Of a stretch of DNA of 64,000 bases, positions 23,095 to 46,873 are shown in pieces. The notes under the pieces were generated by a model. The model did no database searches and was not told the DNA's origin. It saw nothing but the letters and a program-made list of their open reading frames with translations. Numbering within the stretch: position 1 is the first letter of the stretch; each line of letters opens with the position of its first letter. The translations under genes and the position numbers were made by a program. The DNA is from Elusimicrobia bacterium CG1_02_56_21 (GTDB lineage Bacteria > Elusimicrobiota > Elusimicrobia > Elusimicrobiales > UBA9959): contig MNUR01000085.1 in assembly GCA_001871115.1 (NCBI GenBank), positions 22,060 through 86,059 on the forward strand. Direction: 5' to 3'.

Positions 23095-25029
23095 TTAAAC
23101 AAGCTGTTTTATCCTGGCAACCAGGTCCGTAATAGATTCTGTCATCTTGGAACAATCGATGTAGGTCTCTAAATTAAGTTTCTGCCTGCCGTCCGGAGAG
23201 CACCAGAAAACCCGAAAGAGCAGGCCTTCTTCGGTAAGCTCGGCGTGGGCGCCCAGCGGGGTGGCGCAGCCGCCTCCGAGGGTAGCTAGGAAAAGTCTTT
23301 CGCATTCGGCGCAGATGCGCGTGCGGGCATGGTCCAGCCGGCGGACCAGGCGCATGGTCTGCAGGTCGGCCGTGGCGGCCTCTACGGCTATAATTCCCTG
23401 GCCGGGGGCCGGAACAACTTCATCGGCGGTAAAAACCTGGGTGATCCTGTTTTCAAGGCCCAGGCGCTTCAGGGCGGCGTAAGCCACCACTATTGCGTCG
23501 CACTCGCCGCGGTCCAGCTTGGCCAGGCGGGTGTCCATATTGCCGCGCAGGGGGCAGAACACAGCGCCGGGCTTGAGCCTGGCTATCTGGAAGCGCCTCC
23601 GGGAAGAGCCGGTGGCGATCTTCGCCCCGGGAGGCAAATCCGCCAGGCTGCAGCCGGTGCGGGTAATAATAGCGTCGCGCGGATCCTCGCGCTTTAAATA
23701 AGCCCCTATCCTCAGGCCTTCGGCCAGGTCGCCGGGCAGGTCTTTAAGGGAATGCATGGCCAGCTTTATCCCGCCGTCCAGGAGGTCTCGCTCTATTTCT
23801 TTTACAAAAAGGCCTTTACCGTCCGCGGCTATAAGCTTCTCCACCGGATCGGTCAAAAAAATGTCGCCGCTGGTCTTTATGATCTTCTGGCTTATCTCTA
23901 CGCCCTCTTTCCTCACCAGGTCGCAAATGATATTAGTCTGCGCCAGGGCCAGGCGGGAGCCGCGGGTCCCTATCCTCAGGGGCTCGGTAAAAACCGCGGG
24001 GTCCACGGAGGAATCCTGCGAGAACTTCTCCCAGATCTCCGCGCTCTTGGCGTCTATTATGCCCTGCGCCTTCTTTATTTCCTCCGAGAGCTGGGCCAAA
24101 TTCTCGGCCACTATCCGCTCCAGGTCGTCGATATTGTAAAGGTAAACATTGGAAAGGCTGCCCACCTCGGGCTGGATATTGCGGGGCACCGAAATGTCCA
24201 CCAGGAAAATAGGGTTGCCGTGGCGCAGCGCCATTATCTTCTTCATCCCGTCTTTGGTTATTACGGGCTCGGAAGAAGAGGTGGAAACCAGGACCACGTC
24301 GGCTTCGGAGAGGGCGGTCTCGAGGTTCTCCCAGGGTACGCTCTGCGCCGAAAACTTAGCCGCCAGCTCCTGGCCTTTGGCCCGGGTACGGTTGATAACA
24401 GTAAGGGCGGCTTTCTTTTCAGCGAAGGCCGAGGCGGCGGCTTCGGCCATCTCGCCGGCGCCCAACAGCAGCACCTTGGCTTTGTCCAGGTCGCCGAAGA
24501 TGCGGCCGGCGTACTGCACGGCCACAAAAGCCACCGAGCGGCCGCCCTGGCTTATCTTGGTATTCGCGCGCACATGCTTGCCCACGCCTATAGCGCGCTG
24601 AAAAAGGGTATTGGTCAGGCGGCCGGTGGTTCCCGCGCTTTTGGCCCCGTAGTAGGAATCTTTAAGCTGGCCCAGGATCTCGTTCTCCCCCACCACCATC
24701 GAGTCCAGGCCGCAGGCCACATTGAGCAGATGGTCCATGGCCTCTTTGCCGGTCTTGCTGTACAAATGTCCGCCTGAAGACTTATTGTCGTCGTACTGGG
24801 ACTGGTCGCTTAAGAACCCTATCAGGGCCGTTTCGCAGTCTTTCTTTTTTCCCACGGCGTAAAGGTCCACGCGGTTACAGGTGGAAACCCAAACCAGCTC
24901 TTCCGCCGCCAGCTTGCCGCTGGCCAGAGCCCTGAGCAGCAGGCGCTTGCGCTCGGGGCTTATGCTGAAAGCCTCCCGTGTTTCCACGGTACAGGTTTTA
25001 TGAGAAAGGCCGACAAGAACTAGTTCCAT
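23095..25029 (-). CDS. hemA-hemC: Bifunctional glutamyl-tRNA reductase / hydroxymethylbilane synthase (HemA-HemC fusion)
   Basis: HemA: VSTCNRVDLY and NADPH site LLLGAGEMAE. HemC from about residue 347: LRIGTRGSRLALAQT...KTSGD...GNMDTRL...GGGCATPLG. One uninterrupted 644-aa ORF. Confidence 0.9.
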   Translation of the reverse strand: MELVLVGLSHKTCTVETREAFSISPERKRLLLRALASGKLAAEELVWVSTCNRVDLYAVGKKKDCETALIGFLSDQSQYDDNKSSGGHLYSKTGKEAMDHLLNVACGLDSMVVGENEILGQLKDSYYGAKSAGTTGRLTNTLFQRAIGVGKHVRANTKISQGGRSVAFVAVQYAGRIFGDLDKAKVLLLGAGEMAEAAASAFAEKKAALTVINRTRAKGQELAAKFSAQSVPWENLETALSEADVVLVSTSSSEPVITKDGMKKIMALRHGNPIFLVDISVPRNIQPEVGSLSNVYLYNIDDLERIVAENLAQLSEEIKKAQGIIDAKSAEIWEKFSQDSSVDPAVFTEPLRIGTRGSRLALAQTNIICDLVRKEGVEISQKIIKTSGDIFLTDPVEKLIAADGKGLFVKEIERDLLDGGIKLAMHSLKDLPGDLAEGLRIGAYLKREDPRDAIITRTGCSLADLPPGAKIATGSSRRRFQIARLKPGAVFCPLRGNMDTRLAKLDRGECDAIVVAYAALKRLGLENRITQVFTADEVVPAPGQGIIAVEAATADLQTMRLVRRLDHARTRICAECERLFLATLGGGCATPLGAHAELTEEGLLFRVFWCSPDGRQKLNLETYIDCSKMTESITDLVARIKQLV

Positions 25030-26695: not shown

Positions 26696-27535
26696 TTAGC
26701 TTCTGCCATAACTGTGCAGGCCGGACATCAGGTAATTGACTCCGAAATAGGTGAACATAACCAGGACAAAGCCCCACAGCATAAGGCCGGCGAACTTCTT
26801 GTCTTTCCAGCCCTTGGTCCTGCGCAAATGAATAGCCACCGCGTAATAAAGCCAGGTTATCAAAGACCAGGTTTCTTTAGGGTCCCAGGACCAGTAAGAG
26901 CCCCAGGCCGAGTTGGCCCAGACCGCGCCGGTGATTATTCCCAGGGTAAGCAGCCAGAAACCCACCAGGCAGGCCCGGTAAACAAGAGATTCAAGGCTAA
27001 TTTTCTTCTCATCATGCTTTAACTTGCCCATGAAAGAATAAACCGCGGCCCCGAGAAAAGAAAGCAGCAGAGCGCCGTAACCGGTCATAACGGTGCTGAC
27101 ATGGATAAGCAGCCAGTTGGACTGCAGCGCCGGGACCAGCGGTGAGATATCAGATTCAAGGAAGGAAGCTCCGCCCAGGCTTAGCACAGCGACCAGGGCT
27201 GTCCAGGGGGCCAGCCACTCAATAGCGCGCCCGGGGACGGCCGCGTGCTTATGCCCTTTCCCGGCTTTTTCTACAGCGGAAAAATGCCAGAACAGCAAAT
27301 AGGCGCCTACAAAGGCCCACACCAGGAAAACCATGGATTCGTACTGGTTGGAGAGCGGCGCCCGGCCGGCAATATACCAGCGCGCGCCTATATGATAGGT
27401 GCTGGAAAGAAAACCGGCGAAGAGCGCGAAGATAGAGTATCTGAATTTCCCGGGCATGCTGAAAAGAAAACCGGTCAGCGTAGCCGCCATAGCCACCGCG
27501 TAAAAAACAAAAGAAGCTTTAAGTGATATTTCCAT
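26696..27535 (-). CDS. ccsA: System II cytochrome c biogenesis protein CcsA/ResC
   Basis: WWD motif WGSYWSWDPKETWSLITW and conserved His residues. 1-nt TAATG overlap with ccsB. Confidence 0.9.
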   Translation of the reverse strand: MEISLKASFVFYAVAMAATLTGFLFSMPGKFRYSIFALFAGFLSSTYHIGARWYIAGRAPLSNQYESMVFLVWAFVGAYLLFWHFSAVEKAGKGHKHAAVPGRAIEWLAPWTALVAVLSLGGASFLESDISPLVPALQSNWLLIHVSTVMTGYGALLLSFLGAAVYSFMGKLKHDEKKISLESLVYRACLVGFWLLTLGIITGAVWANSAWGSYWSWDPKETWSLITWLYYAVAIHLRRTKGWKDKKFAGLMLWGFVLVMFTYFGVNYLMSGLHSYGRS

Positions 27536-28584
27536 TATTTCATCTCCTTCCAGAACTCCATGGTAAGCCCAAGCATCAGCGCGGCAAAACCGGAGTAGAT
27601 GAAAATTACACTGGGGTCTTTAGAAATCTGGATGCTGGAAAAACTAAGGTTCTTCGGGTCGTAACCTGACTGGTAAAGCCTATAGCCTTTGAAGCTGGCC
27701 GGCGAATTCACATTTATAAGCTTCTCAAACTTCTCAACCCCGTCCTCAAGAAAGGCCAGGCGGCTCTCGAACTGCTTTACCCTGCCGGGCCTGTATTCGT
27801 AGACATACCGCACCCCGCCGGTGTCGGACACTCCGTGAAAATCGGGATGGTTGGCAAAAAGATAACTGGGCTTGGCGGCTTTGGAGCCGGCTATCTTCAC
27901 CGCGAGGGCGGGGTTTTCCCTGTCCTCGCTTAAGCTCACCGGGCCGGCATCGCCTATTGTGAAGCTGGGATAGAACTTAAGCACCGTGATGTCGGCCGCC
28001 TCTGATTTAAAATGAGCCTCAGTGCCCGGCTGAACTTCCACCGATTCCAGGAGGTCTTCCCCGCCTTCATGTCCGGGGTCTTCGCGCTTTTTAAGTGCGT
28101 GGATAAAGTGCTTCTCCTGATCATAATAGACTATATTGAAATCTTTGAGCTGTACCGAAAAGGGCATGGCCACCGGGGTTCCGGCGTCGCCCGCGAATTC
28201 GCTCTCGGTCTGCCCGGTTTCCAGGGCCAGGGTTCCGCGTACCGAGAATATACCGTGCACCGCGCCTCCCACAAACATCAGCATAATCCCGAGATGGCTC
28301 AGGAAAACCCCGGGGCGCAGTTTAAGAACTTTCCACTGCCTTACGGTGCAGGCCAGCATGTTCAGGAAGCCGCCGGCCATCAGGGCCAGGAACCAGAAAC
28401 TGGAGAAAACATTATTGAACCGTAAATAAACGACCCAGTTGCCGCCTATGGGGCCGAACATCTCCTGGTAAGCCTGGTGGGACTCGCCCTGGGGAACCAC
28501 GCCGCCTATTATGAATGCCGCCAGCATCAGGCCCGAAAGAACAAAGAAGAATTTTATTGAAGAGAGGGGCTTTATAAGTTTCAT
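27535..28584 (-). CDS. ccsB: System II cytochrome c biogenesis protein CcsB/ResB
   Basis: ResB-like topology: N-terminal TMs, a large periplasmic domain and a C-terminal TM. Placed immediately upstream of ccsA. Confidence 0.8.
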   Translation of the reverse strand: MKLIKPLSSIKFFFVLSGLMLAAFIIGGVVPQGESHQAYQEMFGPIGGNWVVYLRFNNVFSSFWFLALMAGGFLNMLACTVRQWKVLKLRPGVFLSHLGIMLMFVGGAVHGIFSVRGTLALETGQTESEFAGDAGTPVAMPFSVQLKDFNIVYYDQEKHFIHALKKREDPGHEGGEDLLESVEVQPGTEAHFKSEAADITVLKFYPSFTIGDAGPVSLSEDRENPALAVKIAGSKAAKPSYLFANHPDFHGVSDTGGVRYVYEYRPGRVKQFESRLAFLEDGVEKFEKLINVNSPASFKGYRLYQSGYDPKNLSFSSIQISKDPSVIFIYSGFAALMLGLTMEFWKEMK

Positions 28585-28752: not shown

Positions 28753-29406
28753 CTACTGATGGCAGCCTTTGCAGGTTTCTTTATAATCTTTCCTGAGCGG
28801 AACCTTTTTATGCCCGCCTATATCGTGACATTTCACGCAGCCCATCATTTCGGCGTGGGCCTTATGCGGCATTGTTTTGCCGGAGATGGCCGCTATGCCG
28901 TTGGAGGCCGGGACCTTGACGGTTTCCGGCGGGACCTTCACGCCCACCGCCTGGTGGCACTGGGTGGCGCAATAGGAACCGGAAAGAAGCGGCTCGGCCG
29001 AGATATCGGTCAGTTCGACGGCAAGGGCGCGGCCGGTTTCGCCCAGCGCGCGGTCGGCTTCGCGCATGATCAGGGAGGCGAGGTATACATTGTGCTCGCC
29101 GTGAGCCGCCGACAGGAACTGCTCCAGCCTGAAGGCGTGGGCCAGTGACAGGCGCGCTTTTTTAAGCTCGACCTCCGGCTTGGAGGACTTGGCCAGTTCG
29201 CCCTTCGCAGCTTCTATCTTGGCAGCCAGCTGCTTCAGAGAGTTCCTAACATCGTCCTTCACATGGCCCCAGGTCCCCTTGAACTTCTCGCCATGGCATT
29301 TCGAGCAGGCCTGCTCCGAGGCTTTCTGGGTATGGCCGCTGTAGCCGCCGGCCTCGGATTTGTCCTGGTAATGGCAGCCTATGCAGTTGACGCCGGCCTT
29401 GAACAT
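28753..29406 (-). CDS. Multihaem c-type cytochrome (4 CxxCH + 1 CxxxCH), apparently 5-prime truncated with no signal peptide
   Basis: CIGCH, CSKCH, CATQCH, CVKCH, CKGCH. The frame stays open upstream to a TAA at 29497-29499 that is followed at once by CH-QDKH, which looks like the tail of another haem motif. Confidence 0.6.
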   Translation of the reverse strand: MFKAGVNCIGCHYQDKSEAGGYSGHTQKASEQACSKCHGEKFKGTWGHVKDDVRNSLKQLAAKIEAAKGELAKSSKPEVELKKARLSLAHAFRLEQFLSAAHGEHNVYLASLIMREADRALGETGRALAVELTDISAEPLLSGSYCATQCHQAVGVKVPPETVKVPASNGIAAISGKTMPHKAHAEMMGCVKCHDIGGHKKVPLRKDYKETCKGCHQ

Positions 29407-29644
29407 CGGGCTGGCCAGCTCGGGCAGCGAAGAGCCCTTTATATCCGCCGGGAGCCTGCCGGAATAGAGTTCCAGCTGCGTAAAATGCTTGTCCTGGTGG
29501 CATTAAACCTGTTCCAGAAAGGAGGACCGGCTATAAATTCACGACGGAACCACGACGAGTGATTTCAGGCTCATTCTTGGATTAGAAAATGCTGCCCGCA
29601 CTATTTGCATTTCAGGGAACTCAAATATACATGCGGGCCGCGGC

Positions 29645-29684
29645 GAAAAAACAGGCCCGCAACTTTAGTTAAAGCCGCGGGCCT
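29645..29684 (-). terminator. Rho-independent terminator after the MtrB-like gene
   Basis: On the minus strand, aggcccgc...gcgggcct followed by gttttttcg, about 30 nt after the stop at 29715. Confidence 0.6.
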
Positions 29685-29714
29685 ATCCTGACAGCCGGTC
29701 TGTTATGCGGCCTT

Positions 29715-31826
29715 TTAGAACTTATAGGCCAGCGAGGCGGTCAGCGTGTGGCCGCTACCGGACAGGGAAGAATACTGTTTGTCCTGGTAACGGTCAAAGG
29801 CGTACCGGCCCTTGATAGAGACGTCCCTGGCGTAGGCGTAATCCGCGCCGACGGAAAGAACGTGCAGATAATTATCTACGGCGCCGTCGTTAGTGGAAGC
29901 CAGCTCGGTGGCGATAAGGCCGCTGGCGATATCCCCCTCGGAGCGGCTGAGCGCGTAGCCGCCAGTCAGCTTCAGGTTCTCTTTCACCTGCCAGTCGGTA
30001 TCCATGGCAAGGGTGGTCGTGTTGATCAGGGACTTGGACTTACCGTGGTTAGTGAACAAGAGCGCTGTTTCATAGCGGCGTTTATTGCTGGTATTATAGA
30101 AGTTCTGAAAGTCGCTCTGGTTCCAGTCTACGCTGACGGATGAGTTGGTTTTGGCGGTAAAAGCCGCGCTCAGGGAAGCGCCGGCAGAATGCAGCACATT
30201 GTGAATGTTTTGCGACATGGTATTATTAGTTACCGCCCCGGTCATAGCTGTATAATCAAGCCCGGTATTGCGGGTGCGGCTATAGCTGTAATAAAAACCC
30301 AGCACCTTGCCGCCCGCAGTTACATAACTGGCATCCGTCTTGACATTAAGAGCTTCCTGCGCCTCTGCCACGGTACCCACCTTAGCCGCTTTCTGATAGG
30401 AAGGGGTCAGGTGTAAAACCAGGCCGTCTACAGGCCGCATAGCGCCTTTCAGGAAGACAGTATCGGATTCGGAATCCGCTTTATAAAGGATTCTCTGGGA
30501 AGGGATGCTCACGCCGGCATTGGTACCCAGAAGGAAGCCGCGTTTCTTTGTTTCATGCTTCCAGCCGGCGCCAAGGCTGTTTTTAGAACCGGCGGGCCGC
30601 AGCGTGGCGTTAAATCCATACTCCGCAGACTTAATGGAAGTCAGTTTCAGGTCCAAAGATTCCTTGTTGGTTGGGTCGTTAAACAAACCGGCGGCGTACC
30701 GGGTAGAATTATTCCACCTGTTTGCGGTTTTCACATAAGCTTCTGTCTCTACGGAGGGGATAGCCAGGCACTTGCCGCTGAGAAAGAAGTTATTGGTGGC
30801 TATCTCGCCTTTTTTATAGTTATTGTCTGTCTGTTTGGTAGCGAAAGAATCCTGGGAAAGCACAGACATCCCGTAGCCGGCCGCCAGGGAAGAATTCTTA
30901 AAAGTCTTGGAGAGCCTTAAAGAATTGGAGTTCAAAGTGCTGTCCTGGATGAAGTGCAGGGGTTTGCTCTGGTTCGCGGCGGTCATCGCGGGATAATACG
31001 CGTCTTTGAAATCCCCGATCGTATAGCCCCTTGCCTGATTTTCGAACTTCTCGAAAGACGCGTCGTAAGCTAATTGGAACCAGTTAAGAGGAGAGGCTGT
31101 AAAGTTAGCTGAAGTCCGGCCCATGAGCTCGTTGACGGGCTTATCGTAACCATGCCAGCGCCTGAGAGGAAAACCACTTTGGAAATCTCCCCCCCCGGAT
31201 ACCCAAGTAGCATAGGTGTTCCCAGTTCTGTTATAGCCTTCATGCTTAACCGAGACGGACGGAATATCGCGCAGCGGCCCGGATTTGGATTTAATCCCTA
31301 CGCCGTAATTAGTGCGGTCCAGCCTGAGAGGGGAACCGCCGGAATCATTGTTAAAGCGCGCCACATAGCCGTCGCCCGTGCCGGTATAAGCGGCGTCCGT
31401 GCCGCCGGTAACATTATTGGCCCTATTGCGGTAATCCAGGCCGACCGAGGCCGAGCGGTACTGAGAATAGAACCCGGAAACATTCACCAGCTCCGAGTCC
31501 ATCCGCACCATGCCGGAGTGGGTGTAAAAACCATAACCCTTCCGCTGAATTGCGATAGAATCTTTGCCGTTGGAATAGGAAAGATCCAGGTCCAGGTCCA
31601 GGTAGGCGCCCGAAACACCGCGGTCCGACCATCCTTTCTGGTAGTCGTAGCGCTGCAGGAACCGGGTATCAGCCGCGTTCCCGCCGCCCACATATTCATA
31701 TATAGACAGCTTGGGCGCCAGTGTGCCGTTGAACCAGCCTTTGCCGGCGGCGCCTTCCTGTGCGTTCACTATAGCCGGGCAGAACAGCGCGGCTAGCAGA
31801 AGATTTAGCAGATTTTTGGATTTCAT
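29715..31826 (-). CDS. MtrB/PioB-like large outer-membrane beta-barrel (porin partner of the decahaem cytochrome)
   Basis: 703 aa, signal peptide MKSKNLLNLLLAALFCPAIVNA, Tyr/Gly/Asn-rich alternating strands, C-terminal SLAYKF. It lies 38 nt downstream of the decahaem gene, the same order as mtrAB/pioAB/mtoAB. Confidence 0.65.
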   Translation of the reverse strand: MKSKNLLNLLLAALFCPAIVNAQEGAAGKGWFNGTLAPKLSIYEYVGGGNAADTRFLQRYDYQKGWSDRGVSGAYLDLDLDLSYSNGKDSIAIQRKGYGFYTHSGMVRMDSELVNVSGFYSQYRSASVGLDYRNRANNVTGGTDAAYTGTGDGYVARFNNDSGGSPLRLDRTNYGVGIKSKSGPLRDIPSVSVKHEGYNRTGNTYATWVSGGGDFQSGFPLRRWHGYDKPVNELMGRTSANFTASPLNWFQLAYDASFEKFENQARGYTIGDFKDAYYPAMTAANQSKPLHFIQDSTLNSNSLRLSKTFKNSSLAAGYGMSVLSQDSFATKQTDNNYKKGEIATNNFFLSGKCLAIPSVETEAYVKTANRWNNSTRYAAGLFNDPTNKESLDLKLTSIKSAEYGFNATLRPAGSKNSLGAGWKHETKKRGFLLGTNAGVSIPSQRILYKADSESDTVFLKGAMRPVDGLVLHLTPSYQKAAKVGTVAEAQEALNVKTDASYVTAGGKVLGFYYSYSRTRNTGLDYTAMTGAVTNNTMSQNIHNVLHSAGASLSAAFTAKTNSSVSVDWNQSDFQNFYNTSNKRRYETALLFTNHGKSKSLINTTTLAMDTDWQVKENLKLTGGYALSRSEGDIASGLIATELASTNDGAVDNYLHVLSVGADYAYARDVSIKGRYAFDRYQDKQYSSLSGSGHTLTASLAYKF

Positions 31827-31864
31827 TATATTTTCTCCAGTTATATATTTCCGAATAAGAGCGC

Positions 31865-32704
31865 TTAGTAGCGCAGGTGCTGGTCGAAAGCGCTGCCGTG
31901 TATTCCGCCGTGGCAGGCGGTGCAGTTCCTGAGCGCGGCGCCGGTAATACGCGCGCCGGCTGCCGCGCCGACAGCGTGCCGGTTGTCAGCCAGGGAATGG
32001 CAGCGCAGGCACAGAGCGGGCTGGGCAACCGTCAGCAGTTTCTTTATGGGAGAGCCGTGGGGATTATGGCAGGTAAGGCAGTCTTCGGTAACCGGCGGAT
32101 GCTCCATGGTATAGGGTCCGCGCACCGCCTGGTGGCACTTGGTGCAGGTCTCTGTCTTGGCAGTCAGGGCCTGTTTTTTATCGGTATGGGGGTCGTGGCA
32201 GTCCACGCAGGAGATTCCGCCTTCCTTTAAGGGATGGTGGGAAAACATATTGAAGCGGGCGGTCACTTCCTTATGGCAGGAAGCGCATAAGGCGGAATTG
32301 GCGTCCTTGTATTTTGCCGTGTCCGCGCCCTTTACGACCTTGGGCGTATGGTTGCTGTGACAGGCGGCGCAATTGAGGCCGGCCTTTTTATGGTCGGAGA
32401 ACGCCCAGTTCATCCGGTTGGCGTCTTTTACATGACAGACCTGGCAGGCGGCCGCGCCGGGCCTTGCGGGTTTTGTTTCCGGGCCGGGGTTGGCTAAATG
32501 TTTTTCAGTGCCGCTGTGGCACTTCGAGCAATCCTGCTTGCCGTGCACGCCCCTGGCGTGGGAAGACGAGGCTGCGTCATGGCAGGCTGAACACGCCGCA
32601 TTGGCTGTCGTGTCGGCGCGGGCCGCTGGCGGGTTCGAGAGTATTCCTACAGCGAAAGCCAGCAGGGCAATGACCCCACAGGCCTTTACGTTAATCCTAT
32701 TCAT
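31865..32704 (-). CDS. Periplasmic decahaem c-type cytochrome, MtrA/DmsE/PioA-like
   Basis: Signal peptide plus ten CxxCH motifs in 279 aa (CSACH, CSKCH, CQVCH, CAACH, CASCH, CVDCH, CTKCH, CLTCH, CLRCH, CTACH). The C-terminal CTACHGGIHGS resembles the MtrA family. Confidence 0.85.
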   Translation of the reverse strand: MNRINVKACGVIALLAFAVGILSNPPAARADTTANAACSACHDAASSSHARGVHGKQDCSKCHSGTEKHLANPGPETKPARPGAAACQVCHVKDANRMNWAFSDHKKAGLNCAACHSNHTPKVVKGADTAKYKDANSALCASCHKEVTARFNMFSHHPLKEGGISCVDCHDPHTDKKQALTAKTETCTKCHQAVRGPYTMEHPPVTEDCLTCHNPHGSPIKKLLTVAQPALCLRCHSLADNRHAVGAAAGARITGAALRNCTACHGGIHGSAFDQHLRY

Positions 32705-32872
32705 TTAGTTCTCCTGTTTTTTAAAGACCAAGGTCTTATTTGTACTGCGCGTATGTGCCGCAAAAGGCAATACAGTACCAATACACTAGCAAACATGCGG
32801 CAACCGCGTATTAATGTAAAGCAATTGCCGCATTGATTTAAGTTAACCGGTTTAAGCGCGGTCAGCCGCTAA

Positions 32873-33139
32873 GGGCTTGTTAAAGAATAACTGACGCATT
32901 TGGCTGAGCTGATTTTGGAGCGAGCCGAAGCGGCGTGAAGCGACACGTACTCCATGTACTTTAGCGGAACGCCGCAAAGGCGCAGCCCAAAAGCGGCTCA
33001 GCCCCCCGGGGGAGGCCCATCTTTGAACCGGCTGCCGCGTTGCTCCTCACTCACAGACCACCGGTATGCTCGTTCATCGCGCCTTGCATCCGGATCAAAT
33101 ATGGGCCTCCAAATGCGTCAGTTATTATTTAACAAGCCC
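32873..33139. repeat. MITE-like nested palindromic element, family C. It shares its core with family A.
   Basis: 31-bp terminal inverted repeats GGGCTTGTTAAAGAATAACTGACGCATTTGG (32873-32903) and 33109-33139, with 1 mismatch. Inner palindromes GCTGAGC...GCTCAGC and GGAGGCCCAT...ATGGGCCTCC. The core TTTTGGAGCGAGCCGAAGCG...GCGCAGCCCAAAAGCGG matches the reverse complement of family A. Confidence 0.8.
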
Positions 33140-33852
33140 TAACGCCGTGAAACCTGCTCCAGCCTGGCTTTGTCTTTCACCGCGACGTTCCGGCCGGCGA
33201 CGGAGATCCAGCCTTTCTTGCGGAATTCGGCCAGCAGGCGGCAAAGAACTTCCGGGGAGGTCCCGAGCATTTTGGCCAGGTCTCCCCTGGTCTCCGGGAA
33301 CTGTACGCTGGCAGAGCCCTTGGCAACGGCCCTCTCCACTATATATTTAGCCAAGCGTCCTCTTACGGTTTTAAAGCCGAAGTCCAGCAGCTGCTCCTCG
33401 GAGCGGCCAAGCTCCGCGGCAAAGCGGGTCAGCAGGGCGCGGCAGACCTGAGGGATCTCCAGGAAATTTTTCTCGAAATAGGCCCCGTCCAGGAAACAGA
33501 TCCGGCAGTCTTCCAGCGCTTCGCCAGTGCCCAGATAGGCTTCACCGGCAAGGAAAGAGCGGTCCCCCAGCAGGGCCGGGGCCTCTATCACACGGGGAAT
33601 GCTGGAATGAAGCCCCGTATCCGTCCTTATTATTTTAACCCGGCCTGTACAGAGGAAATACACGCCGAAAGGGCGATTGCCCTCGTAAAAAATAATATTG
33701 CCTTTGCGGTAATCATTGGTTATCCTCTTTTTGCAGAAGCCCTCCCATACCGCGTCAGGAACTGCGGCGAAGACCGGCATTTTCAGCATCGGGCATTTGC
33801 ACTTTGCCGCTTCAAAGGTTTCACACTTACACTTCGGACTGATAGTTTTCAT
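33139..33852 (-). CDS. Crp/Fnr-family transcriptional regulator with an N-terminal Cys cluster
   Basis: cNMP-binding-type beta-roll (IIFYEGNRPFGVYFLCTGRVKI) and C-terminal HTH (RGDLAKMLGTSPEVLCRLLAEFRKKG). N-terminus has SPKCKCETFEAAKCKCP. Confidence 0.85.
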   Translation of the reverse strand: MKTISPKCKCETFEAAKCKCPMLKMPVFAAVPDAVWEGFCKKRITNDYRKGNIIFYEGNRPFGVYFLCTGRVKIIRTDTGLHSSIPRVIEAPALLGDRSFLAGEAYLGTGEALEDCRICFLDGAYFEKNFLEIPQVCRALLTRFAAELGRSEEQLLDFGFKTVRGRLAKYIVERAVAKGSASVQFPETRGDLAKMLGTSPEVLCRLLAEFRKKGWISVAGRNVAVKDKARLEQVSRR

Positions 33853-33882: not shown

Positions 33883-35058
33883 CTAAACTGCCGGCTTTGC
33901 CGAGATCTCCTCATCAGTAATATAGCAAGCGGGATCGGCTTCCCACATATCGCCGGTAGCGCGAAGCGCGCGCACCCGGAAACCTCCGCCACAAACGTCT
34001 TTCCAGGCACAGGTTCCGCAGCGGCCCTTTAATAGAGGAAGGCGGTTCCTGAGGCCGGCCAGTACGGGGTGTTTCCCCTCCCCCCACACTTTACTGAAGG
34101 GGGTCTGGCGGATATTGGCTATGGTAAGGTCCTGCCAAAACTGGTCCGGGTGTATATTCCCCTTCCAGTCTATATTGGAAAGGGTGACGCCGGAGCCGTT
34201 GGCCCCGCCGCCGTTCCACTGCAGGATCTCGAGAACGGCCGCGGCGCGCTTCGGGTCCTTCTTGAGCAGCTTAAGGTAAAGATAGACCGCGTCGCAGGGA
34301 TTGTCCACGGTGAGGATCTCGGTGGGCTTGGGCTTTTTCGCCAGGATCTCCGCGCGGCGGATGATGGTCTCCATGGCCTTCCGGGATTCGGCGTGGGTGA
34401 GATCGTCGCCGCTGATTTCCCCGCCCCGGCCTGAATAGACCAAATGGTAGAAACAGGCCCTGGGGATCTCCTCGCCTTCTATAAAGTCGAAGATCTTATC
34501 CAGGTTCTCCACATTATGCTTGGTCAGGGTAAAGCGCAGGCCGGTCTTCTGCCCTACCTCTTTAAGGTTGCGCAGGCCTTTGAGCGCGCCCTCGAAAGCC
34601 CCGTCCACGCCGCGGAATTTATCGTTTATCGGGCCGATCCCGTCGAAAGAGATGCCGACATAAGTGATGCCCAGGGACTTGATCTTTTTGGCCATGTCCG
34701 GGGTTATCAGGGTCCCGTTAGTGGAGATAGTAACCCTTATGCCTTTGCCGGTGGCGTAAGAAGCCAGCTCGAAGAAATCCGGGCGGGTAAGCGGCTCGCC
34801 GCCGGAGAAAAGCAGGGCCGAGACGCCCATTTGTCCGACGTCGTCTATCATCACTTTAGCTTCCGCGGTGGTAAGTTCGTCGGTGTCCAGTTCCCCGGTG
34901 GAATTCGCGTAGCAGTGCACGCATTTCAGATTGCAGCGCTTGGTGCTGCTCCAGACCACGATGGGCCTGCGGGCGCCCGCGCCCTCTTTATTGCCGCCGT
35001 AGCGCAATTTCACTGAGGGAGTATCGATGCTGCACCACATTTTTGTTATATCAAGCAT
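33883..35058 (-). CDS. NirJ/AhbC/AhbD-family radical SAM enzyme with a SPASM domain (alternative haem biosynthesis)
   Basis: CNLKCVHCY radical SAM motif. C-terminal CGTCAWKDVCGGGFRVRA. Sits among ahbAB and other haem genes. Confidence 0.75.
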   Translation of the reverse strand: MLDITKMWCSIDTPSVKLRYGGNKEGAGARRPIVVWSSTKRCNLKCVHCYANSTGELDTDELTTAEAKVMIDDVGQMGVSALLFSGGEPLTRPDFFELASYATGKGIRVTISTNGTLITPDMAKKIKSLGITYVGISFDGIGPINDKFRGVDGAFEGALKGLRNLKEVGQKTGLRFTLTKHNVENLDKIFDFIEGEEIPRACFYHLVYSGRGGEISGDDLTHAESRKAMETIIRRAEILAKKPKPTEILTVDNPCDAVYLYLKLLKKDPKRAAAVLEILQWNGGGANGSGVTLSNIDWKGNIHPDQFWQDLTIANIRQTPFSKVWGEGKHPVLAGLRNRLPLLKGRCGTCAWKDVCGGGFRVRALRATGDMWEADPACYITDEEISAKPAV

Positions 35059-35094
35059 ATTTATATTCCTATTTATGTAAAACGCTGTAGTCTT

Positions 35095-36198
35095 TTATTT
35101 TTTAGCTTTTGCCTTGGGTTCATAGAGGCAGTACGGCTCCTGGCCCATGTAGTCGCCGGTGGTCCCGAAAGCCCTGGCCCGGCAGCCGGCGCAGATAACC
35201 CGGTATTCGCAGACCCCGCATTTTCCTTTAAGGGCGTCCGGGTCGGTGATGGTCTTGAAGACCTCGGAGTTCTCCCAGACCTCCCAGAAATTCTGTTTCC
35301 GCAGGTCCCCGGCCGGCACGGGCAGATAACCGCAGGGGAAAACCTCCCCCTTGTGGGAGATGAAGGCGATAGCGCTGCCGGCCAGGCAGCCGCGCATCTG
35401 GGCGGTCCGGCCCGCGAACTCGGGGCTGGAAGCGGCAACTTTCTGGCGGACTATCCTGGTCTGGTGCGGCGCGCAGGTGGCGCGTATCTCCATGCCGCCG
35501 GGCGCGGGATGAGCGTGACCGTGGCCATGGGCCGGGTGCCCGGCGGCGCCCTGCTGCACCATCAGCCAGTTGAGGAATTCCTCGTAGTTCTCGGCGCCGA
35601 GGCGCATCGCGTCTGGCAGCTCGGCGCCGCAGCCCACCGGGACCAGCAGGAAGAAATGCAGGGCGTCCACCCCCAGCTCGCGGGCCAGTTTCACCACCGC
35701 GTCGCGCTCGGCCACGTTCCTGGTGCTGACCGAGCAGTTGATCTGGGTGGAGATGCCGGCGGCCCTGAAAAGCTTGAGGGCGTTCACGGCCTTGTCGAAA
35801 GAGCCTTTCTGGCCGCGGAACTCGTCGTGCGTGGAAGCTATCGCCCCGTCCAGGCTGACGGAGATCCGGTGCGGGCCGTAGGAGGCCAGCATTTTGGTCA
35901 TCGCTTCGTCCACGAGCGCGCCGTTGGTGGCGATGGCGAAGGGGATGCCTTTCTCCTTGGCGAAGGCGAGCAGCTCGGGCAGGTCTTTCCGCATCAGCGG
36001 CTCGCCGCCGGAAAAGACCACCATCGGCGGGCGGCCTTCGCCTTTGAGCGAGAGCAGGATAGCCTTGAATTCGTCTGTGGGGAGTTCATATAGTTCATCG
36101 CCCCTCTCGGGGACATTGGTCCGGCGGCAGTGCACGCACTGCAAGTTGCAGCGGGAAGTGGTTTCCCAGAAAACTAACCTCGGCGGATTTCTTTTCAT
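35095..36198 (-). CDS. NirJ/AhbC/AhbD-family radical SAM enzyme with a SPASM domain and a His-rich insert
   Basis: CNLQCVHCR motif. C-terminal CGVCEYRVICAGCRARA. Insert GHPAHGHGHAHPAPGG. The ATG at 36198 is preceded by AAGGA. The longest ORF starts at 36225. Confidence 0.75.
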   Translation of the reverse strand: MKRNPPRLVFWETTSRCNLQCVHCRRTNVPERGDELYELPTDEFKAILLSLKGEGRPPMVVFSGGEPLMRKDLPELLAFAKEKGIPFAIATNGALVDEAMTKMLASYGPHRISVSLDGAIASTHDEFRGQKGSFDKAVNALKLFRAAGISTQINCSVSTRNVAERDAVVKLARELGVDALHFFLLVPVGCGAELPDAMRLGAENYEEFLNWLMVQQGAAGHPAHGHGHAHPAPGGMEIRATCAPHQTRIVRQKVAASSPEFAGRTAQMRGCLAGSAIAFISHKGEVFPCGYLPVPAGDLRKQNFWEVWENSEVFKTITDPDALKGKCGVCEYRVICAGCRARAFGTTGDYMGQEPYCLYEPKAKAKK

Positions 36199-36231
36199 GG
36201 TGGTGTCCTTCAAGTAGCGTATCAAAGTCTG

Positions 36232-37683: not shown

Positions 37684-39024
37684 TTATAACTTCAGCGCGT
37701 CTACAAAATCAGCGAGTTCTTTATCGGTTCCGTCGAAAGGGGGCATGGTAGCTGCGGGATTCCTTAAGATGTTCTTCAGCTCTTCTTTGGTGTGCAGCTG
37801 CAGGGGTTTCTCCAGGTTAGGGCCGAAAGTACCGCCTTCGCCGTTATAAGTGTGGCAGACCAGGCAGCCGCGCGCTTCCAGCTCCACTTCCACATCGTGT
37901 TTTGAAGCCGATGGTTTAACCGGCGCGGACTTGGCCGCGGCGGTTTTAACGGGTTCGGGTTTAGGCGCCTGCTTTGCCGGAGTTTTCACTTCTGCGGCAG
38001 CCTTGGTTTCTGCAGCCGCAATCCCGGCTTTTTTAGGCGCGGCTACCAGAGCCCCGGTCATATACATATGCCCGTATATCAAATAAGGCTTCCTGGCCCG
38101 CTCGCGTGTGTAAGCTCCGAATGAAAAAGCTGTGAGCGCGGCCAGGCCGCCGGCGAGCAGAACTTTCCGCTTTGTCTTACGGGAGAGCAGGTAAACGGCG
38201 GAACAGGCAACGGCTATCGTGGCCAGGCTGGCCATGGGCCAGAAGAATTTGGCTACCGGGCCTTTTACTATGCTGTCGAAGACCGCCAGATTTATGTATT
38301 TAAGGGTGAATAAATAAGACAGGCCGCTTAAAGGCTGGAGCAAAATAGCCACGGCGAAGATGGTTCCGCAATAATCCAGCATCCAGGAATAATAGCCGGC
38401 GTCGGCGGCCGGCGCTTTACGCAGTTTAATGAAAGCGTAGATATAGCCGAACATAGCTGAATTTATCAGGCAGGGGAGCAGCACATGGGTGCTGGAGGCG
38501 GCGAAGCTGGGATTAAAGACCGCGTTCATAAGACGGGGATCCTGGAAATAGGTACCCGGGGTCAGCATAAAAGACCAGGCGGCGTTTATGACCAGCGCCG
38601 CGGCTATACCGGAAGCCGCCGCTACCCCGCCTATGAAGATATGCCGGCCTTTATTTGGGTTATCCCAGGTTCCGCCGTAGAGCGCGGTAGAAGCCATCAT
38701 TACCAGGAAGAGAACCGCTTCAAGGAAAAGCGGCCAGAAGAAGATATTGTAAAGTTTTGAAGTGAACTCGGGGAAAAGCCCGATGAGGAGAACCACAAAA
38801 GTAACGCCCAGCACGCCGTTTATCTTCATCATGTCGGAAAGGAAATTTATATAACCTTTCGCGAACCTGTCATGAAAAGCGCTGTTCTTCCTGTAGCCTA
38901 TCCATTCCCCGGTAAAAGCCAGGAAAACACCCCCAACCGCCACGAAAGCGAAAAAAACATGGGTAACAATGACCAGCGCCATTACCAGGGAATTACCGAG
39001 GAAAGGGAAATTTATATGGGGCAT
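37684..39024 (-). CDS. Cytochrome bd subunit I (CydA)-like membrane protein fused to a C-terminal monohaem cytochrome c domain
   Basis: The N-terminus LVMALVIVTHVFFAFVAVGG...FWPLFLEAVLFLVMM resembles CydA helices 1-3. About 9 TM helices, an Ala/Lys/Pro linker, then CLVCH...MPPF. The family call is tentative. Confidence 0.5.
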   Translation of the reverse strand: MPHINFPFLGNSLVMALVIVTHVFFAFVAVGGVFLAFTGEWIGYRKNSAFHDRFAKGYINFLSDMMKINGVLGVTFVVLLIGLFPEFTSKLYNIFFWPLFLEAVLFLVMMASTALYGGTWDNPNKGRHIFIGGVAAASGIAAALVINAAWSFMLTPGTYFQDPRLMNAVFNPSFAASSTHVLLPCLINSAMFGYIYAFIKLRKAPAADAGYYSWMLDYCGTIFAVAILLQPLSGLSYLFTLKYINLAVFDSIVKGPVAKFFWPMASLATIAVACSAVYLLSRKTKRKVLLAGGLAALTAFSFGAYTRERARKPYLIYGHMYMTGALVAAPKKAGIAAAETKAAAEVKTPAKQAPKPEPVKTAAAKSAPVKPSASKHDVEVELEARGCLVCHTYNGEGGTFGPNLEKPLQLHTKEELKNILRNPAATMPPFDGTDKELADFVDALKL

Positions 39025-39063: not shown

Positions 39064-39531
39064 TTAAAAGTACGCCATGCTGGTCTTTTTAAATTCTCTT
39101 AAGCTCTCAAGAACCAGGTACTCTTTGGCCCCGGTCTTTTTTACCAGTCCGCTGACCACCTTTAAGATTTCGGCGCGGCTGCGGCCGTGGACCATAGTAT
39201 AAAGGTTATAGGACCAGCCCGGGCGGACAACGCGCTCATAGCAGTGGCTTATGGCCGGGGAGGCTGCGGCGGTCTTGCCGAAAGAAATAGCCCGGCCGGC
39301 CGGGATCTTCCAGGCTACCATAGCGTTGGCAAAATAACCGGCGCGCTTATGCCTGACTATAGCGCGCACGCAGCGCAGCACTCCGGATTTTTTGAATTTC
39401 TTAAGCGCGGCCAGGAATTCTTCCTCTTTAATACCCAGGCCGGCCGCCATCTTTTTAAAAGGCTCGGGCTCAAGAGGGATATCTCCCTGGAGGGCGCGGA
39501 CTATGGCTTCTTCGGTCTTCTTTAATTTCAT
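39064..39531 (-). CDS. Sirohaem decarboxylase subunit (AhbA/AhbB, NirD/L/G/H family, AsnC-like)
   Basis: IVRALQGDIPLEPEPFKKMAAGLGIKEEEFLAALKKFKKSGVLR and SHCYERV. ATGA start/stop overlap with the upstream paralog at 39528-39531. The longest ORF starts at 39669. Confidence 0.75.
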   Translation of the reverse strand: MKLKKTEEAIVRALQGDIPLEPEPFKKMAAGLGIKEEEFLAALKKFKKSGVLRCVRAIVRHKRAGYFANAMVAWKIPAGRAISFGKTAAASPAISHCYERVVRPGWSYNLYTMVHGRSRAEILKVVSGLVKKTGAKEYLVLESLREFKKTSMAYF

Positions 39532-40118
39532 ATGGGAAAGAAAGTCTTTATCTTGAACATTGTTTTCACCGGGAAGGAATAACATTTCTCCACCCCGGGC
39601 AGCCGCCTGAAAACGGCTATCTGCCGGTTCACCCCGGCCATGGTTCCCCGCACTCCTACGGTAAACCAAAGGTTCATTTCCCCCGCCCTTTCATAACAAT
39701 GGGTAACTCCGGGGAATTTAGAAATTTCTTTAGCTACGGCCGCCAGCCGGGAGGGTTTCACCCGCGCACCGGCGAGCGTGGAAGAAAAACCCAGCTTGCG
39801 GGTTTCAAAGCTGCCGCCTATCCTGCGGACCACGCCTTTTTTCTTATAAGTTTTAAGCACTTTAAGGACATCGGCCCCCGTCACGCCTATCCCGGCGCCC
39901 AGGGCTTCAAAAGGGCGGCTGCAGGCGGGAATATCCGTCTGGGCCGCGTCCAGGACCAGTTTTTCTATTCTTGTAGCCCGAATTCCGCTTGCGGAATTCC
40001 CCGCGCAGCGGGCGGAAGGCCCAGCGCTATGCGCGCCCGGCCCGACGGGGCGTATGCCTCCCGCAGGGCGCCCGCTATGCGGGCGGTAAACTTCACCAGA
40101 AGTTTTCAGGCTAGCCAT
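39528..40118 (-). CDS. Sirohaem decarboxylase subunit (AhbA/AhbB family) with a low-complexity N-terminal extension
   Basis: LVLDAAQTDIPACSRPFEALGAGIGVTGADVLKVLKTYKKKGVVRRIG and THCYERA. The only ATG overlaps the hemB end by 13 nt. Confidence 0.7.
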   Translation of the reverse strand: MASLKTSGEVYRPHSGRPAGGIRPVGPGAHSAGPSARCAGNSASGIRATRIEKLVLDAAQTDIPACSRPFEALGAGIGVTGADVLKVLKTYKKKGVVRRIGGSFETRKLGFSSTLAGARVKPSRLAAVAKEISKFPGVTHCYERAGEMNLWFTVGVRGTMAGVNRQIAVFRRLPGVEKCYSFPVKTMFKIKTFFPI

Positions 40119-41092
40119 TTGGCGGCGTCCTTGGCGTGGTAGGTTATTATCATGTCGGCCCCGGCCCTTTTAATAGAGGTCAGGATCTCCAGGACCATGG
40201 CTTTCTCGTTTATCAGGCCTTTCTGCGCCGCCGCCTTCACCATCGAATACTCGCCGCTCACATTGTAAGCCGCGGTCGGGAACTGGAATTTTTCTTTTAC
40301 AGCGCGCAGGATGTCCAGGTAGGCCAGGGCCGGCTTCACCATTACGATATCGGCGCCCTGCCTCACGTCGAGCTCCACCTCGCGCAGCGCCTCGAGATAA
40401 TTGGCCGGGTCCATCTGGTAGGTTTTCCTGTCCCCGAACTGCGGGGCGGACTGGGCCGCTTCGCGGAAAGGCCCGTAGAAAGCGGAAGAATATTTGGCGG
40501 CGTAGGAAAGTATGCCTACGTCCTGGAAACCTTTCCCGTCCAGGGCTTTCCTTATCGCCCCGACGCGGTTGTCCATCATATCGGAAGGAGCGACCAGGTC
40601 GGCGCCGGCTTCGGCGTGCACCAAAGCTTCTTTGACCAGCAGCTCGAGCGTGCGGTCATTGTCCACCAGCATTTCGCCGGCGCGGTTCTTCCTGACGACG
40701 CCGCAATGCCCGTGGCTGGTGTATTCGCAAAGGCAGACGTCGGTCATCACGGCGATATCCGGCACGGACTTCTTTATCAGCCTGACGGCCTCCGGCACGG
40801 GGCCCCCGGGGTCATAGGCTTCTTTCCCGAGCGGGTCTTTTTTAGAGGGCAGCCCGAAAAGTATCAGCGAGTTTATGCCGAGGGCGCGGCATTTCGCGGC
40901 TTCGGCCGCCGCCTCGTCCACGGACAGGTGGAAGCAGCCGGGCATGGAAGAGATCTCTTTTTTGTATTTTTTACCGGGGACCACGAAAAGCGGGTAGACG
41001 AAATTGTCGGCGGTAACGCGGGTTTCCCTGAACATGTCGCGGGCCCATTTCAGGTTCCTGAGTCTGCGAGGGCGGGCTGAATCGGAAAGCAT
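40106..41092 (-). CDS. hemB: Porphobilinogen synthase (delta-aminolevulinate dehydratase), Zn type
   Basis: CLCEYTSHGHCG zinc site, SDMMDNRVGAIR, MVKPALAYLD. Confidence 0.95.
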   Translation of the reverse strand: MLSDSARPRRLRNLKWARDMFRETRVTADNFVYPLFVVPGKKYKKEISSMPGCFHLSVDEAAAEAAKCRALGINSLILFGLPSKKDPLGKEAYDPGGPVPEAVRLIKKSVPDIAVMTDVCLCEYTSHGHCGVVRKNRAGEMLVDNDRTLELLVKEALVHAEAGADLVAPSDMMDNRVGAIRKALDGKGFQDVGILSYAAKYSSAFYGPFREAAQSAPQFGDRKTYQMDPANYLEALREVELDVRQGADIVMVKPALAYLDILRAVKEKFQFPTAAYNVSGEYSMVKAAAQKGLINEKAMVLEILTSIKRAGADMIITYHAKDAAKWLA

Positions 41093-41142
41093 GTGGTCTT
41101 CTCCTTGAAGTCTGGCGGCTGTTAGCCTGCGGGTTCGGGCCT

Positions 41143-41251
41143 CCAGGGAACTTCCCCCGTGAACCCTGGAAGATGGAAACCCTTGCGTCGGTTTCCCCCC
41201 GTCAGGCGGGGCCCCCCCTTCCGCAAAGGGTTCACGGGGGAAGTTCCCTGG
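41143..41251. repeat. Structured palindromic intergenic element, family B, copy 2
   Basis: Perfect 25-bp arms CCAGGGAACTTCCCCCGTGAACCCT (41143-41167) and AGGGTTCACGGGGGAAGTTCCCTGG (41227-41251). Same core as copy 1, different outer arm sequence. Confidence 0.75.
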
Positions 41252-41261
41252 CGGACCTCCA

Positions 41262-43332: not shown

Positions 43333-43782
43333 TTATTTCGCTTCCTCTTTCTTCTCTTCGCTCTTCTTCCTGTCCACGTCTACGTGGGGGCTGTGGCAGT
43401 CGCGGCAGTCGCGGCCTTTGCCGTTTATCATCTTTTTCTTATCGGCCATGGGGGCTTTCATGTGAAGGCTGCCCGCGCCGTGGCAGGCTTCGCACTGCAC
43501 GTTGGCCATTTCCGGGGTAGCTTCCATGGAGACAAAGCCGCCGGTTTCGCCCATGCCGGTAACATGGCACTTTACGCACTCGGGTTTTTTCCGGTCTTCG
43601 GCGGTAAGAGCATCTATCGCCGTAGCATGCTTCATCTTCATCCAGGTAGCGTGCTGCTTGGAATGACACATTTTGCACTTGCCTGCGCCGAGGTACGTAG
43701 CTGTTGCGGGCGCGTCCTGGGCCACAACTATTCCGGCTATGCCCATGAACACCAGACACCCGAGCAATGATATCGTTTTCAT
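43333..43782 (-). CDS. Periplasmic tetrahaem c-type cytochrome
   Basis: Signal peptide MKTISLLGCLVFMGIAGIVVAQ. CKMCH, CVKCH, CEACH, CRDCH. AGGAGG Shine-Dalgarno before the ATG at 43782. The longest ORF starts at 43866. Confidence 0.8.
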   Translation of the reverse strand: MKTISLLGCLVFMGIAGIVVAQDAPATATYLGAGKCKMCHSKQHATWMKMKHATAIDALTAEDRKKPECVKCHVTGMGETGGFVSMEATPEMANVQCEACHGAGSLHMKAPMADKKKMINGKGRDCRDCHSPHVDVDRKKSEEKKEEAK

Positions 43783-43996
43783 TTTTCCTCCTGAGGATCT
43801 AGAACAGATAAAACAATACTTATTTAGAAATGGTTGCAGGCTGGCGGACTGCCCACGGACTTGCAAGCATTACTCTGATTATACAGTTTTTTTTGAGGTT
43901 ATGCCAAAGAGCCGGACCCGGCCGCTATAGGACCGGGTTCCAGAGCGCTGCCGGGTTAAAAAAGCTTATTGAATAAGGGAAAGCCGAAATTCGGGA

Positions 43997-46265: not shown

Positions 46266-46873
46266 TAATGAGTCTCTCCCGGAGTATTGTGTTTTAACGG
46301 GGCCGGAGCGGCCTTCATCGGCTTGAAAGCCGGGGAGTGGGGGTCGTGGCAGGCAATGCAGACCAGGTTCTTTTGCTCGCCAGCGGTTTTGTCCCAGTAA
46401 CCATTGCGGCGCCCATGGGTCCCTCTCTGCCAGTCCCTGTACGTGGGGCCGTGGCATTTAGCGCAAAGCGTTTCCACTTTGGAAAAAGGTATCTGCCCGC
46501 CGCCATTGGCCGCAAAAAAATCCCGCTTGCCGTTATTATGGCAGTTGAAGCAGCGGTTGTTCGAACCGTGCTTTAAAACCACCTTATTATGTATTTCGGG
46601 GGCTGTCCTGGGGTCCTGGTCGGTGGGGTCCGAGTGGCAGTCTCCGCAGGCCATGCCCATGGTCCCGAGTTTTTTTCCTACTGTCCTGACGGGGGAAATA
46701 TCGTAATACTCGGGCTTCATTACAAAAGCGCGGGGGCCCTGCTCAGAGGTGTGCCTGTTGGTATAGAAGAACCAGGCTGCCGCAACGCAAGCCGCGCCTA
46801 CCGCTATAAGCAGCAGCGTGGGGATTTCCGTATTACGGAAAGCGTCGGTTTTTTTCCAGTCTTGCTCTGACAT
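46265..46873 (-). CDS. Membrane-anchored tetrahaem c-type cytochrome
   Basis: N-terminal TM IPTLLLIAVGAACVAAAWFFY. CGDCH, CFNCH, CAKCH, CIACH. Confidence 0.8.
   Translation of the reverse strand: MSEQDWKKTDAFRNTEIPTLLLIAVGAACVAAAWFFYTNRHTSEQGPRAFVMKPEYYDISPVRTVGKKLGTMGMACGDCHSDPTDQDPRTAPEIHNKVVLKHGSNNRCFNCHNNGKRDFFAANGGGQIPFSKVETLCAKCHGPTYRDWQRGTHGRRNGYWDKTAGEQKNLVCIACHDPHSPAFKPMKAAPAPLKHNTPGETH

Follow-up and report, generated by a model that had tools for sequence, protein, structure and literature searches.

Do two adjacent genes of an uncultured groundwater bacterium, both deposited as "hypothetical protein", encode a route for electrons across the outer membrane, and which way would the electrons travel? 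The bacterium is Elusimicrobia bacterium CG1_02_56_21, represented by a metagenome-assembled genome (MAG), and the genes lie on the minus strand of a 64,000 nucleotide (nt) stretch of its contig MNUR01000085.1, the whole of which we call the window. Their predicted products, a decahaem c-type cytochrome and a large β-barrel protein, are 100% identical to OIO01649.1 and OIO01648.1, respectively. We consider it probable that the two constitute a minimal porin-cytochrome conduit of the MtrAB/MtoAB/PioAB type, in which the cytochrome would be the haem wire and the barrel its insulating sheath. Such conduits are the main known route for electrons between diderm bacteria and minerals, electrodes or partner cells. 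A first-pass annotation, made from the sequence of the window and its open reading frames (ORFs), had proposed a conduit of this kind, and the proposal is supported by the match of the cytochrome to MtrA, by the profile and fold matches of its partner to MtrB, and by the conserved pairing of the two genes.

The decahaem cytochrome and the 26-strand barrel

The upstream gene (31865–32704, minus strand) encodes an MtrA/MtoA/PioA/DmsE-like protein of 279 amino acids (AAs), which carries a Sec signal peptide (...LSNPPAARA/DTT, with an ARA/D cleavage motif) and exactly ten CxxCH motifs; it was first annotated as secreted and with this motif count. In NCBIfam it scores highest with the DmsE-family model, TIGR03508 (177.1 bits, E 4.3e-52, with model positions 34–256 of 258 aligned); it scores 154 bits against the GSU2203 decahaem family, whose cutoff is 325, and Pfam gives only generic multihaem domains. 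Its sole strong relative among solved structures is Shewanella MtrA, chain A of the Mtr complex in entry 6R2Q, which phmmer finds at E 1.8e-32 and 116 bits (decahaem residues 76–272 to chain residues 125–324; chain 6r2q_A is labelled "Cystathionine beta-synthase" in the search table, and entry 6r2q is the Mtr complex). All ten haem motifs are conserved across an alignment of 32 decahaem homologues, and since they are conserved in hundreds of homologues, ten motifs in 279 residues are not a chance feature. Eleven histidines outside the motifs (H54, H69, H105, H119, H156, H157, H173, H202, H216, H243 and H269) are invariant or at least 90% conserved among the 32, a pattern consistent with bis-histidine haems as in MtrA, the matching of particular histidines to particular haems being presumptive. 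By these comparisons the protein is a near-threshold member of the DmsE/MtrA family and groups with the conduit cytochromes, not with the non-conduit cytochromes that the first-pass annotation had named as the alternative.

The downstream gene (29715–31826, minus strand), separated from the decahaem ORF by a 38-nt spacer, encodes a 703 AA protein with a signal sequence (...PAIVNA/QEG), zero CxxCH motifs and a C-terminus that ends in SLAYKF, with its terminal Phe; the spacing, length, signal peptide and ending are all as originally described. Ribosome-binding sites (AGGAG/GGAG) lie 7–9 nt before the ATG of both genes. The β-barrel character ascribed to this protein is borne out by its AlphaFold model (predicted local distance difference test (pLDDT) score 80, predicted template modelling (pTM) score 0.73), which has 26 strands, the approximate number expected beforehand, has no plug domain, and has long loops that alternate with turns of 2–9 residues. 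The top Foldseek match among Protein Data Bank (PDB) entries is MtrB (6r2q_B; E 5.6e-19, template modelling (TM) scores 0.63/0.68), at a sequence identity of about 13%. Among the 37 detectable barrel homologues (31–78% identity) 27 match PF11854 (MtrB_PioB), the best at 5.4e-30, and HHalign alignment of the barrel family with 15 proteins that are all above the TIGR03509 cutoff, two Shewanella MtrB proteins among them, gives a probability of 99.0% and E 4.8e-18 over 564 columns, almost the full length. The family membership of the 703 AA protein rests on such profile-profile and fold evidence because the curated models give no match to it, and this evidence supports the assignment of the protein as a divergent relative of MtrB/MtoB/PioB. 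When 1.84 billion cluster representatives are searched exhaustively with HMMER, the barrel subfamily proves small, with 180 matches at E ≤1e-3, of which 71 reach E ≤1e-30; its range includes Elusimicrobia, Verrucomicrobia, Lysobacteraceae and Sulfuritalea.

About 26 nt past the barrel stop codon there is an intrinsic terminator hairpin (29646–29689, minus strand), in which a GC-rich stem is followed by UGUUUUUU. The RNA of the region 29630–29720 (minus strand) folds at -45.1 kcal/mol (z -5.15), and 0 of 200 shuffled sequences fold as well. With so strong a terminator after the barrel gene, the decahaem and barrel genes make up a self-contained two-gene operon.

We infer complex formation by the pair, its orientation and its transfer of electrons as follows. 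Both proteins would be exported by the Sec system, system II, whose ResB and CcsB genes lie a few kb downstream, would attach the ten c-type haems to the 279 AA protein, and the 703 AA protein would fold in the outer membrane as a 26-strand barrel. The elongated cytochrome would lie inside this barrel as a chain of bis-histidine haems that spans the membrane, and electrons could then move between periplasmic or inner-membrane cytochromes and an extracellular redox partner. The reaction site would probably be the outermost haem at the barrel mouth, as has been proposed for MtoAB and PioAB, since there is no MtrC-type surface cytochrome here or beside the genes of close relatives.

Relatives of the pair and a larger gene island

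Relatives were found by scanning species-representative genomes with the decahaem alignment. The nearest in that scan, at 41–51% decahaem identity, are in MAGs of Lysobacteraceae and other Gammaproteobacteria, of Sulfuritalea and Betaproteobacteria, and of Opitutaceae, Luteolibacter and other Verrucomicrobia, and in all of them a barrel homologue lies directly 3' of the decahaem gene. The pairing is kept in four Elusimicrobia-type loci and 11 proteobacterial or verrucomicrobial relatives (loci including L001–L012, L082 and L084), and in about 70 further, more distant loci; in nearly every related locus the decahaem homologue has a large barrel gene without haem motifs as its immediate downstream neighbour. 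Three members vary in the proteins themselves: in the verrucomicrobial L010 (7848–8645) and L011 (310–1065) the barrel-paired cytochrome has eight CxxCH motifs in 251–265 AAs, and in L008 (8786–12349; P0174, from a Gammaproteobacteria MAG) the barrel makes up the C-terminal portion of an ORF that is about 1190 AAs long, whose N-terminal extension of about 470 residues may be a real fusion or an over-extension of the ORF.

In a neighbour-joining tree with Shewanella MtrA and Gallionella MtoA-type references, the cytochromes of the window and the three other Elusimicrobia-type loci group together (bootstrap 100), and this group nests inside a 16-member clade (bootstrap 80) that is apart from these references. 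The phylogenetic placement suggested in the first-pass annotation puts the protein in a clade of its own, and the placement is not function-specific. Mto and Pio proteins form no function-specific clades (PMC8805035), and because this is so of the names MtrA, MtoA, PioA and DmsE, the decahaem tree cannot give the direction of electron flow.

A scan of the window for ORFs of ≥100 AAs with ≥2 CxxCH motifs yields three further multihaem ORFs, with 4 motifs each (28753–29406, 43333–43866 and 46265–46873). Four is the highest count in the window outside the decahaem gene, no MtrC/OmcA-type gene lies within about 30 kb on either side of the pair, and an MtrC-type gene is beside the pair in none of the 16 clade members, so the absence first noticed in the window extends to the whole clade. 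What accompanies the pair in the proteobacterial members L002–L006 and L012 is a CymA-like membrane tetrahaem gene just upstream. Large multihaem neighbours occur within the clade only in L007 and L082; both have a C-terminal cytochrome-b561 membrane domain, because of which we take them to be CbcL/MtoC-like inner-membrane proteins. Judged by gene order, the layout of the clade is that of mto clusters rather than that of mtrCAB clusters. On two other Elusimicrobia contigs, L001 and L084, the pair is alone among unrelated genes.

A particularly informative comparison is with L082 (4105–17089) and L083 (ENA ERZ5996431, JGI 3300009031), in which identity to the window proteins is 98% for AhbD, 97% for AhbC, 84% for a Crp/Fnr regulator encoded in the same place upstream of the pair, 94% for the decahaem protein and 77% for the barrel. 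Downstream of the orthologous pair L082/L083 have two more decahaem and barrel pairs (290 + 659 AAs and 296 + 657 AAs), for a total of three in tandem, and after the third pair come two 11-haem CbcL-like proteins with C-terminal cytochrome-b-type membrane domains. The homology between window and L082 runs through the terminator hairpin and ends at 29646. Beyond it, in-frame TGA and TAA codons stand upstream of the start of the tetrahaem ORF at 28753–29406, and the window has V-stop-CH where an 85%-identical relative (P0159) has CSYCH. From these comparisons the window locus seems to be a cut-down form of a larger electron-transfer island, with the retained pair intact.

Two other differences were also seen. 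Between the tetrahaem gene and resB the relatives have a 483 AA gene that is missing from the window. The divergence between the barrels of the window (29715–31826) and L082 (4984–7089) is somewhat concentrated in predicted external loops; relative to its three closest homologues the window barrel is 70% identical in loops, 80% in strands and 86% in periplasmic turns. The tetrahaem ORF at 28753–29406 was itself considered as a third component of the conduit or a substitute for MtrC and was rejected, since it lies beyond the strong terminator, has no signal peptide, appears degraded at its 5' end (the TGA and TAA above), and has no counterpart beside the pair in relatives.

The operon's surroundings in the window

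The 5' untranslated and promoter region of the operon (32705–32871, minus strand) is nearly identical in L082; in the alignment of the two, conservation covers about 170 nt upstream of the decahaem ATG, the AGGAG included. It contains two Fnr-box-like sites (32811–32824 and 32833–32846) with 2 mismatches each, but such sites are not enriched in the window (15 versus a chance expectation of 13.9), and no regulatory claim is rested on them. Directly upstream of the operon lies a gene for a Crp/Fnr-family transcription regulator (33139–33852, minus strand) with an N-terminal Cys cluster, CKCETFEAAKCKC. Its product matches Pfam cNMP_binding and HTH_Crp_2 and has weak NCBIfam matches to FtrB, FixK and Fnr, and we regard it as a candidate regulator of the operon. 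Between the crp/fnr stop codon and the conserved promoter is a 281-nt nested inverted-repeat element (32865–33145), with 32-nt arms that are 97% complementary (32872–32903 and 33109–33140) and an inner 25-nt pair; the element folds at -145 kcal/mol (z -8.7). It has no second copy in the window, no exact arm match in metagenome contigs and no Rfam match (the sole Rfam match in the window is one tRNA gene, 51783–51854, minus strand), and L082 has a zeta-toxin-like gene pair in its place.

The pair sits in a minus-strand array of genes for the making and use of cytochromes. Downstream on the same strand are the genes of system II cytochrome c maturation, which encode ResB and CcsB (26696–28584); ResB matches PF05140 at E 1.6e-35, and CcsB scores 228 bits against TIGR03144, whose cutoff is 187.6. 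Attachment of c-type haems needs a maturation system such as system II, and ResB/CcsB would presumably serve the decahaem protein. A second CcsB-like protein is also encoded in the window. Haem-synthesis genes surround the operon (23095–25029, 33883–36225 and 39064–42776, minus strand) and include a fused HemA-HemC (644 AAs), HemL, HemB and a fused CobA-HemD, together with a siroheme-dependent (Ahb) pathway represented by an AhbB-like decarboxylase and AhbC-like and AhbD-like radical SAM enzymes. In the same array is a gene for a 446 AA membrane protein (37684–39024, minus strand) that matches only the N-terminal half of CydA (cytochrome bd subunit I) and ends in a fused monohaem cytochrome c domain of the cbb3 type; no gene resembling CydB is apparent next to it.

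About 11–15 kb from the pair, a further cluster (43333–47291, minus strand) includes a candidate inner-membrane quinone module (43997–46873), which consists of a membrane-anchored tetrahaem cytochrome (202 AAs, 4 CxxCH motifs and an N-terminal hydrophobic helix), a DsrO/NrfC-like iron-sulfur (FeS) protein and a DsrP/NrfD-like subunit; the cluster also holds a monohaem cytochrome c and a c554-like tetrahaem. The NrfD-type subunit scores 423.5 bits against NF045798 (DsrP), above the cutoff of 350, and the Tat-signal FeS protein 162.5 bits against NF045797 (DsrO), below the cutoff of 200; the window has no dsrMK or dsrAB genes. Neither the tetrahaem of this module (46265–46873) nor that at 28753–29406 matches the NapC/NirT family; a CymA label given to the latter in the tree is an artefact. 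Cytochrome-FeS-NrfD quinone modules such as NetBCD feed Mtr conduits in some bacteria (PMC8805035). The DsrP/DsrO-type module resembles these in architecture and could, by analogy, link the quinone pool to periplasmic haems and perhaps to the conduit.

Alternative readings, direction of electron flow and known systems

Several observations weigh against reading the pair as a conduit. The TIGRFAMs search proposed at the outset did return the DmsE family as the best model for the decahaem protein, but its 177.1 bits are below the curated cutoff of 192.2, and the barrel has no Pfam match and no relevant NCBIfam match even at E ≤10 (TIGR03509 and PF11854 included); a profile of the barrel family, moreover, finds nothing among PDB sequences. 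The haem-free AlphaFold model of the decahaem protein is too poor for use (pLDDT 55, pTM 0.35), and the threading of the cytochrome through the barrel is argued from homology only. No CymA, CbcL/MtoC, MtoD or high-potential iron-sulfur protein (HiPIP) gene adjoins the pair in the window. Finally, the window has only the first of the L082 pairs, without pairs 2–3 and the two CbcL-like genes, and its next downstream ORF, the 217 AA tetrahaem at 28753–29406, is without its 5' end.

The missing family match leaves room for the idea that the barrel is a transporter of an unrelated kind (TonB-dependent receptor, FadL-type channel or general porin) that happens to neighbour a soluble periplasmic decahaem protein, and 11 of the 37 barrel homologues do have weak Toluene_X/FadL matches (best 5.9e-07). 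The modelled barrel, however, lacks a plug and is built of 26 strands instead of 22 or 14; MtrB leads the fold matches by eight orders of magnitude in E, the TonB-dependent receptors trailing at E ≥8e-11 and TM ≤0.44; the HHalign match to canonical MtrB/PioB proteins is nearly full length; and the barrel gene is strictly linked to the decahaem gene across phyla. The small porin or TonB-dependent receptor that the first-pass annotation held up as the alternative is thus largely refuted, and we find this reading scarcely credible. The losses relative to L082/L083 raise instead the idea that the pair is a non-functional, decaying remnant left when a larger extracellular-electron-transfer island was deleted: two extra pairs and two CbcL-like genes are absent, the homology ends right after the terminator, and the following ORF has two in-frame stop codons where its 5' end should be. 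Yet both ORFs of the pair are full length, with signal peptides, ribosome-binding sites, ten haem motifs and the C-terminal Phe, the decahaem protein is 94% identical to its L082 orthologue, and the lone pairs of L001 and L084, which also lack extra cytochromes, indicate that this is a stable configuration. We therefore think decay very unlikely.

If the pair is a working conduit, the direction of electron flow is not readable from sequence; the first-pass annotation left it open, and nothing found settles it. Electron uptake, by oxidation of Fe(II) or a reduced mineral, is weakly favoured over outward transfer because of the Mto-like layout of the clade and the lack of MtrC, though we would hesitate to give it even chances. 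The first-pass annotation saw a resemblance to oxidising-type modules; the relatives have the Mto-type layout, and the mto and pio accessory genes are not beside the window pair. The same conduit could plausibly, if in our view somewhat less probably, run outward as the terminal step of an anaerobic respiration, either by direct reduction of soluble or chelated Fe(III), humics or another acceptor at the exposed haem, or by feeding a reductase or cytochrome at the cell surface whose gene lies elsewhere in the genome (a DmsEF or MtrAB mode); the window covers 64 kb of that genome, which allows for an unlinked partner. DmsE is the best-scoring curated family for the decahaem protein, but no MtrC/OmcA-type or DmsAB-type gene is found beside the pair, in 0 of the 16 clade members. 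A Crp/Fnr regulator with a Cys cluster, upstream in both the window and L082, is typical of anaerobically induced respiration, although control by a Crp/Fnr-family protein, FixK, has also been reported for the oxidising pio operon. The CbcL-like cytochromes of L082 belong with a family that in Geobacter acts as a quinol oxidase for outward transfer, but the CymA and CbcL/MtoC families are present in both oxidisers and reducers (PMC6295460), and phylogeny does not separate the two directions.

The type of system, a decahaem wire in a 26-strand sheath, is already well known; what is new is its host and its divergence. In our searches of the literature no paper tied Mtr, Mto or Pio proteins to Elusimicrobia, and the host phylum is an unexpected one. 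Its principal comparative genomics study is silent on iron and on extracellular electron transfer, a survey of MtrCAB found clusters in only three phyla (PMC8805035), and a survey of quinol oxidases has two CbcL/MtoC homologues in Elusimicrobia without further comment. Surveys that depend on hidden Markov model (HMM) thresholds miss this barrel, since it has no Pfam or NCBIfam match; the deposited records call the products of both genes hypothetical. Few versions of the system in this analysis are as compact as the pair, which has no partner cytochrome and would suit tests of what the MtrAB core does alone as well as the building of synthetic electron conduits. More speculatively, it is plausible that this compact module serves free-living groundwater Elusimicrobia in a genuine exchange of electrons with the outside, possibly by drawing them from the Fe(II) or reduced minerals of an iron-rich aquifer, and that some relatives have amplified it to three tandem conduits with CbcL-like quinone-linked cytochromes. 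If so, the phylum, up to now described as fermentative or oxygen/nitrate-respiring, would gain an iron or mineral redox metabolism, and the barrels would define a subfamily that escapes the MtrB/PioB and FeGenie-type HMM screens now in use.

Among known systems, the Geobacter Pcc (e.g. OmaB-OmbB-OmcB) likewise joins a periplasmic multihaem cytochrome to an outer-membrane barrel for trans-membrane electron transfer, but it includes an outer-surface cytochrome, and the window proteins are homologous to Mtr, not Pcc, which one account regards as independently evolved (PMC12133095). The Shewanella DmsEF conduit, which serves an extracellular dimethyl sulfoxide (DMSO) reductase, has the same decahaem and barrel core and gives its name to TIGR03508; unlike it, the window pair has no adjacent dmsAB-type molybdoenzyme genes, and its score is under the family cutoff. 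PioAB of Rhodopseudomonas palustris TIE-1, which serves phototrophic Fe(II) oxidation and electron uptake, is described as a decahaem cytochrome with an MtrB/PioB-type barrel and no surface cytochrome (PMC6831781, PMC10654088), and in this the window pair is alike. It differs in that its cytochrome (279 AAs) is without the long N-terminal extension of PioA, it is flanked by genes for a Crp/Fnr regulator and a fragmentary cytochrome rather than a PioC-type HiPIP, and there are no photosynthesis genes in the window.

MtoAB, found in Sideroxydans lithotrophicus ES-1 and Gallionella and proposed to oxidise Fe(II) or minerals, also has a decahaem gene followed by that of a 26-strand barrel and no MtrC-type gene, and both it and PioAB are reported to work without MtrC (PMC10654088). 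Relatives of the window pair have adjacent cymA-like or mtoC/CbcL-like genes, as mto clusters do (PMC10654088), whereas the window itself has no adjacent cymA, mtoC or mtoD; its decahaem protein is shorter than the Gallionella-type ORFs (279 AAs versus 354–373 AAs in L025 and L036) and falls in a separate clade, BLASTP does not join its barrel to the Gallionella-type or Shewanella-type barrels, and its host is a member of the Elusimicrobia rather than the Betaproteobacteria. From Shewanella MtrCAB the window pair differs in the absence of mtrC, omcA and mtrF from both window and clade and in a cytochrome that is about 50 residues shorter than MtrA at its N-terminus, yet Shewanella MtrAB (6R2Q) is the best solved relative of both proteins, with the same 26 strands, the same ten haems and the same gene order.

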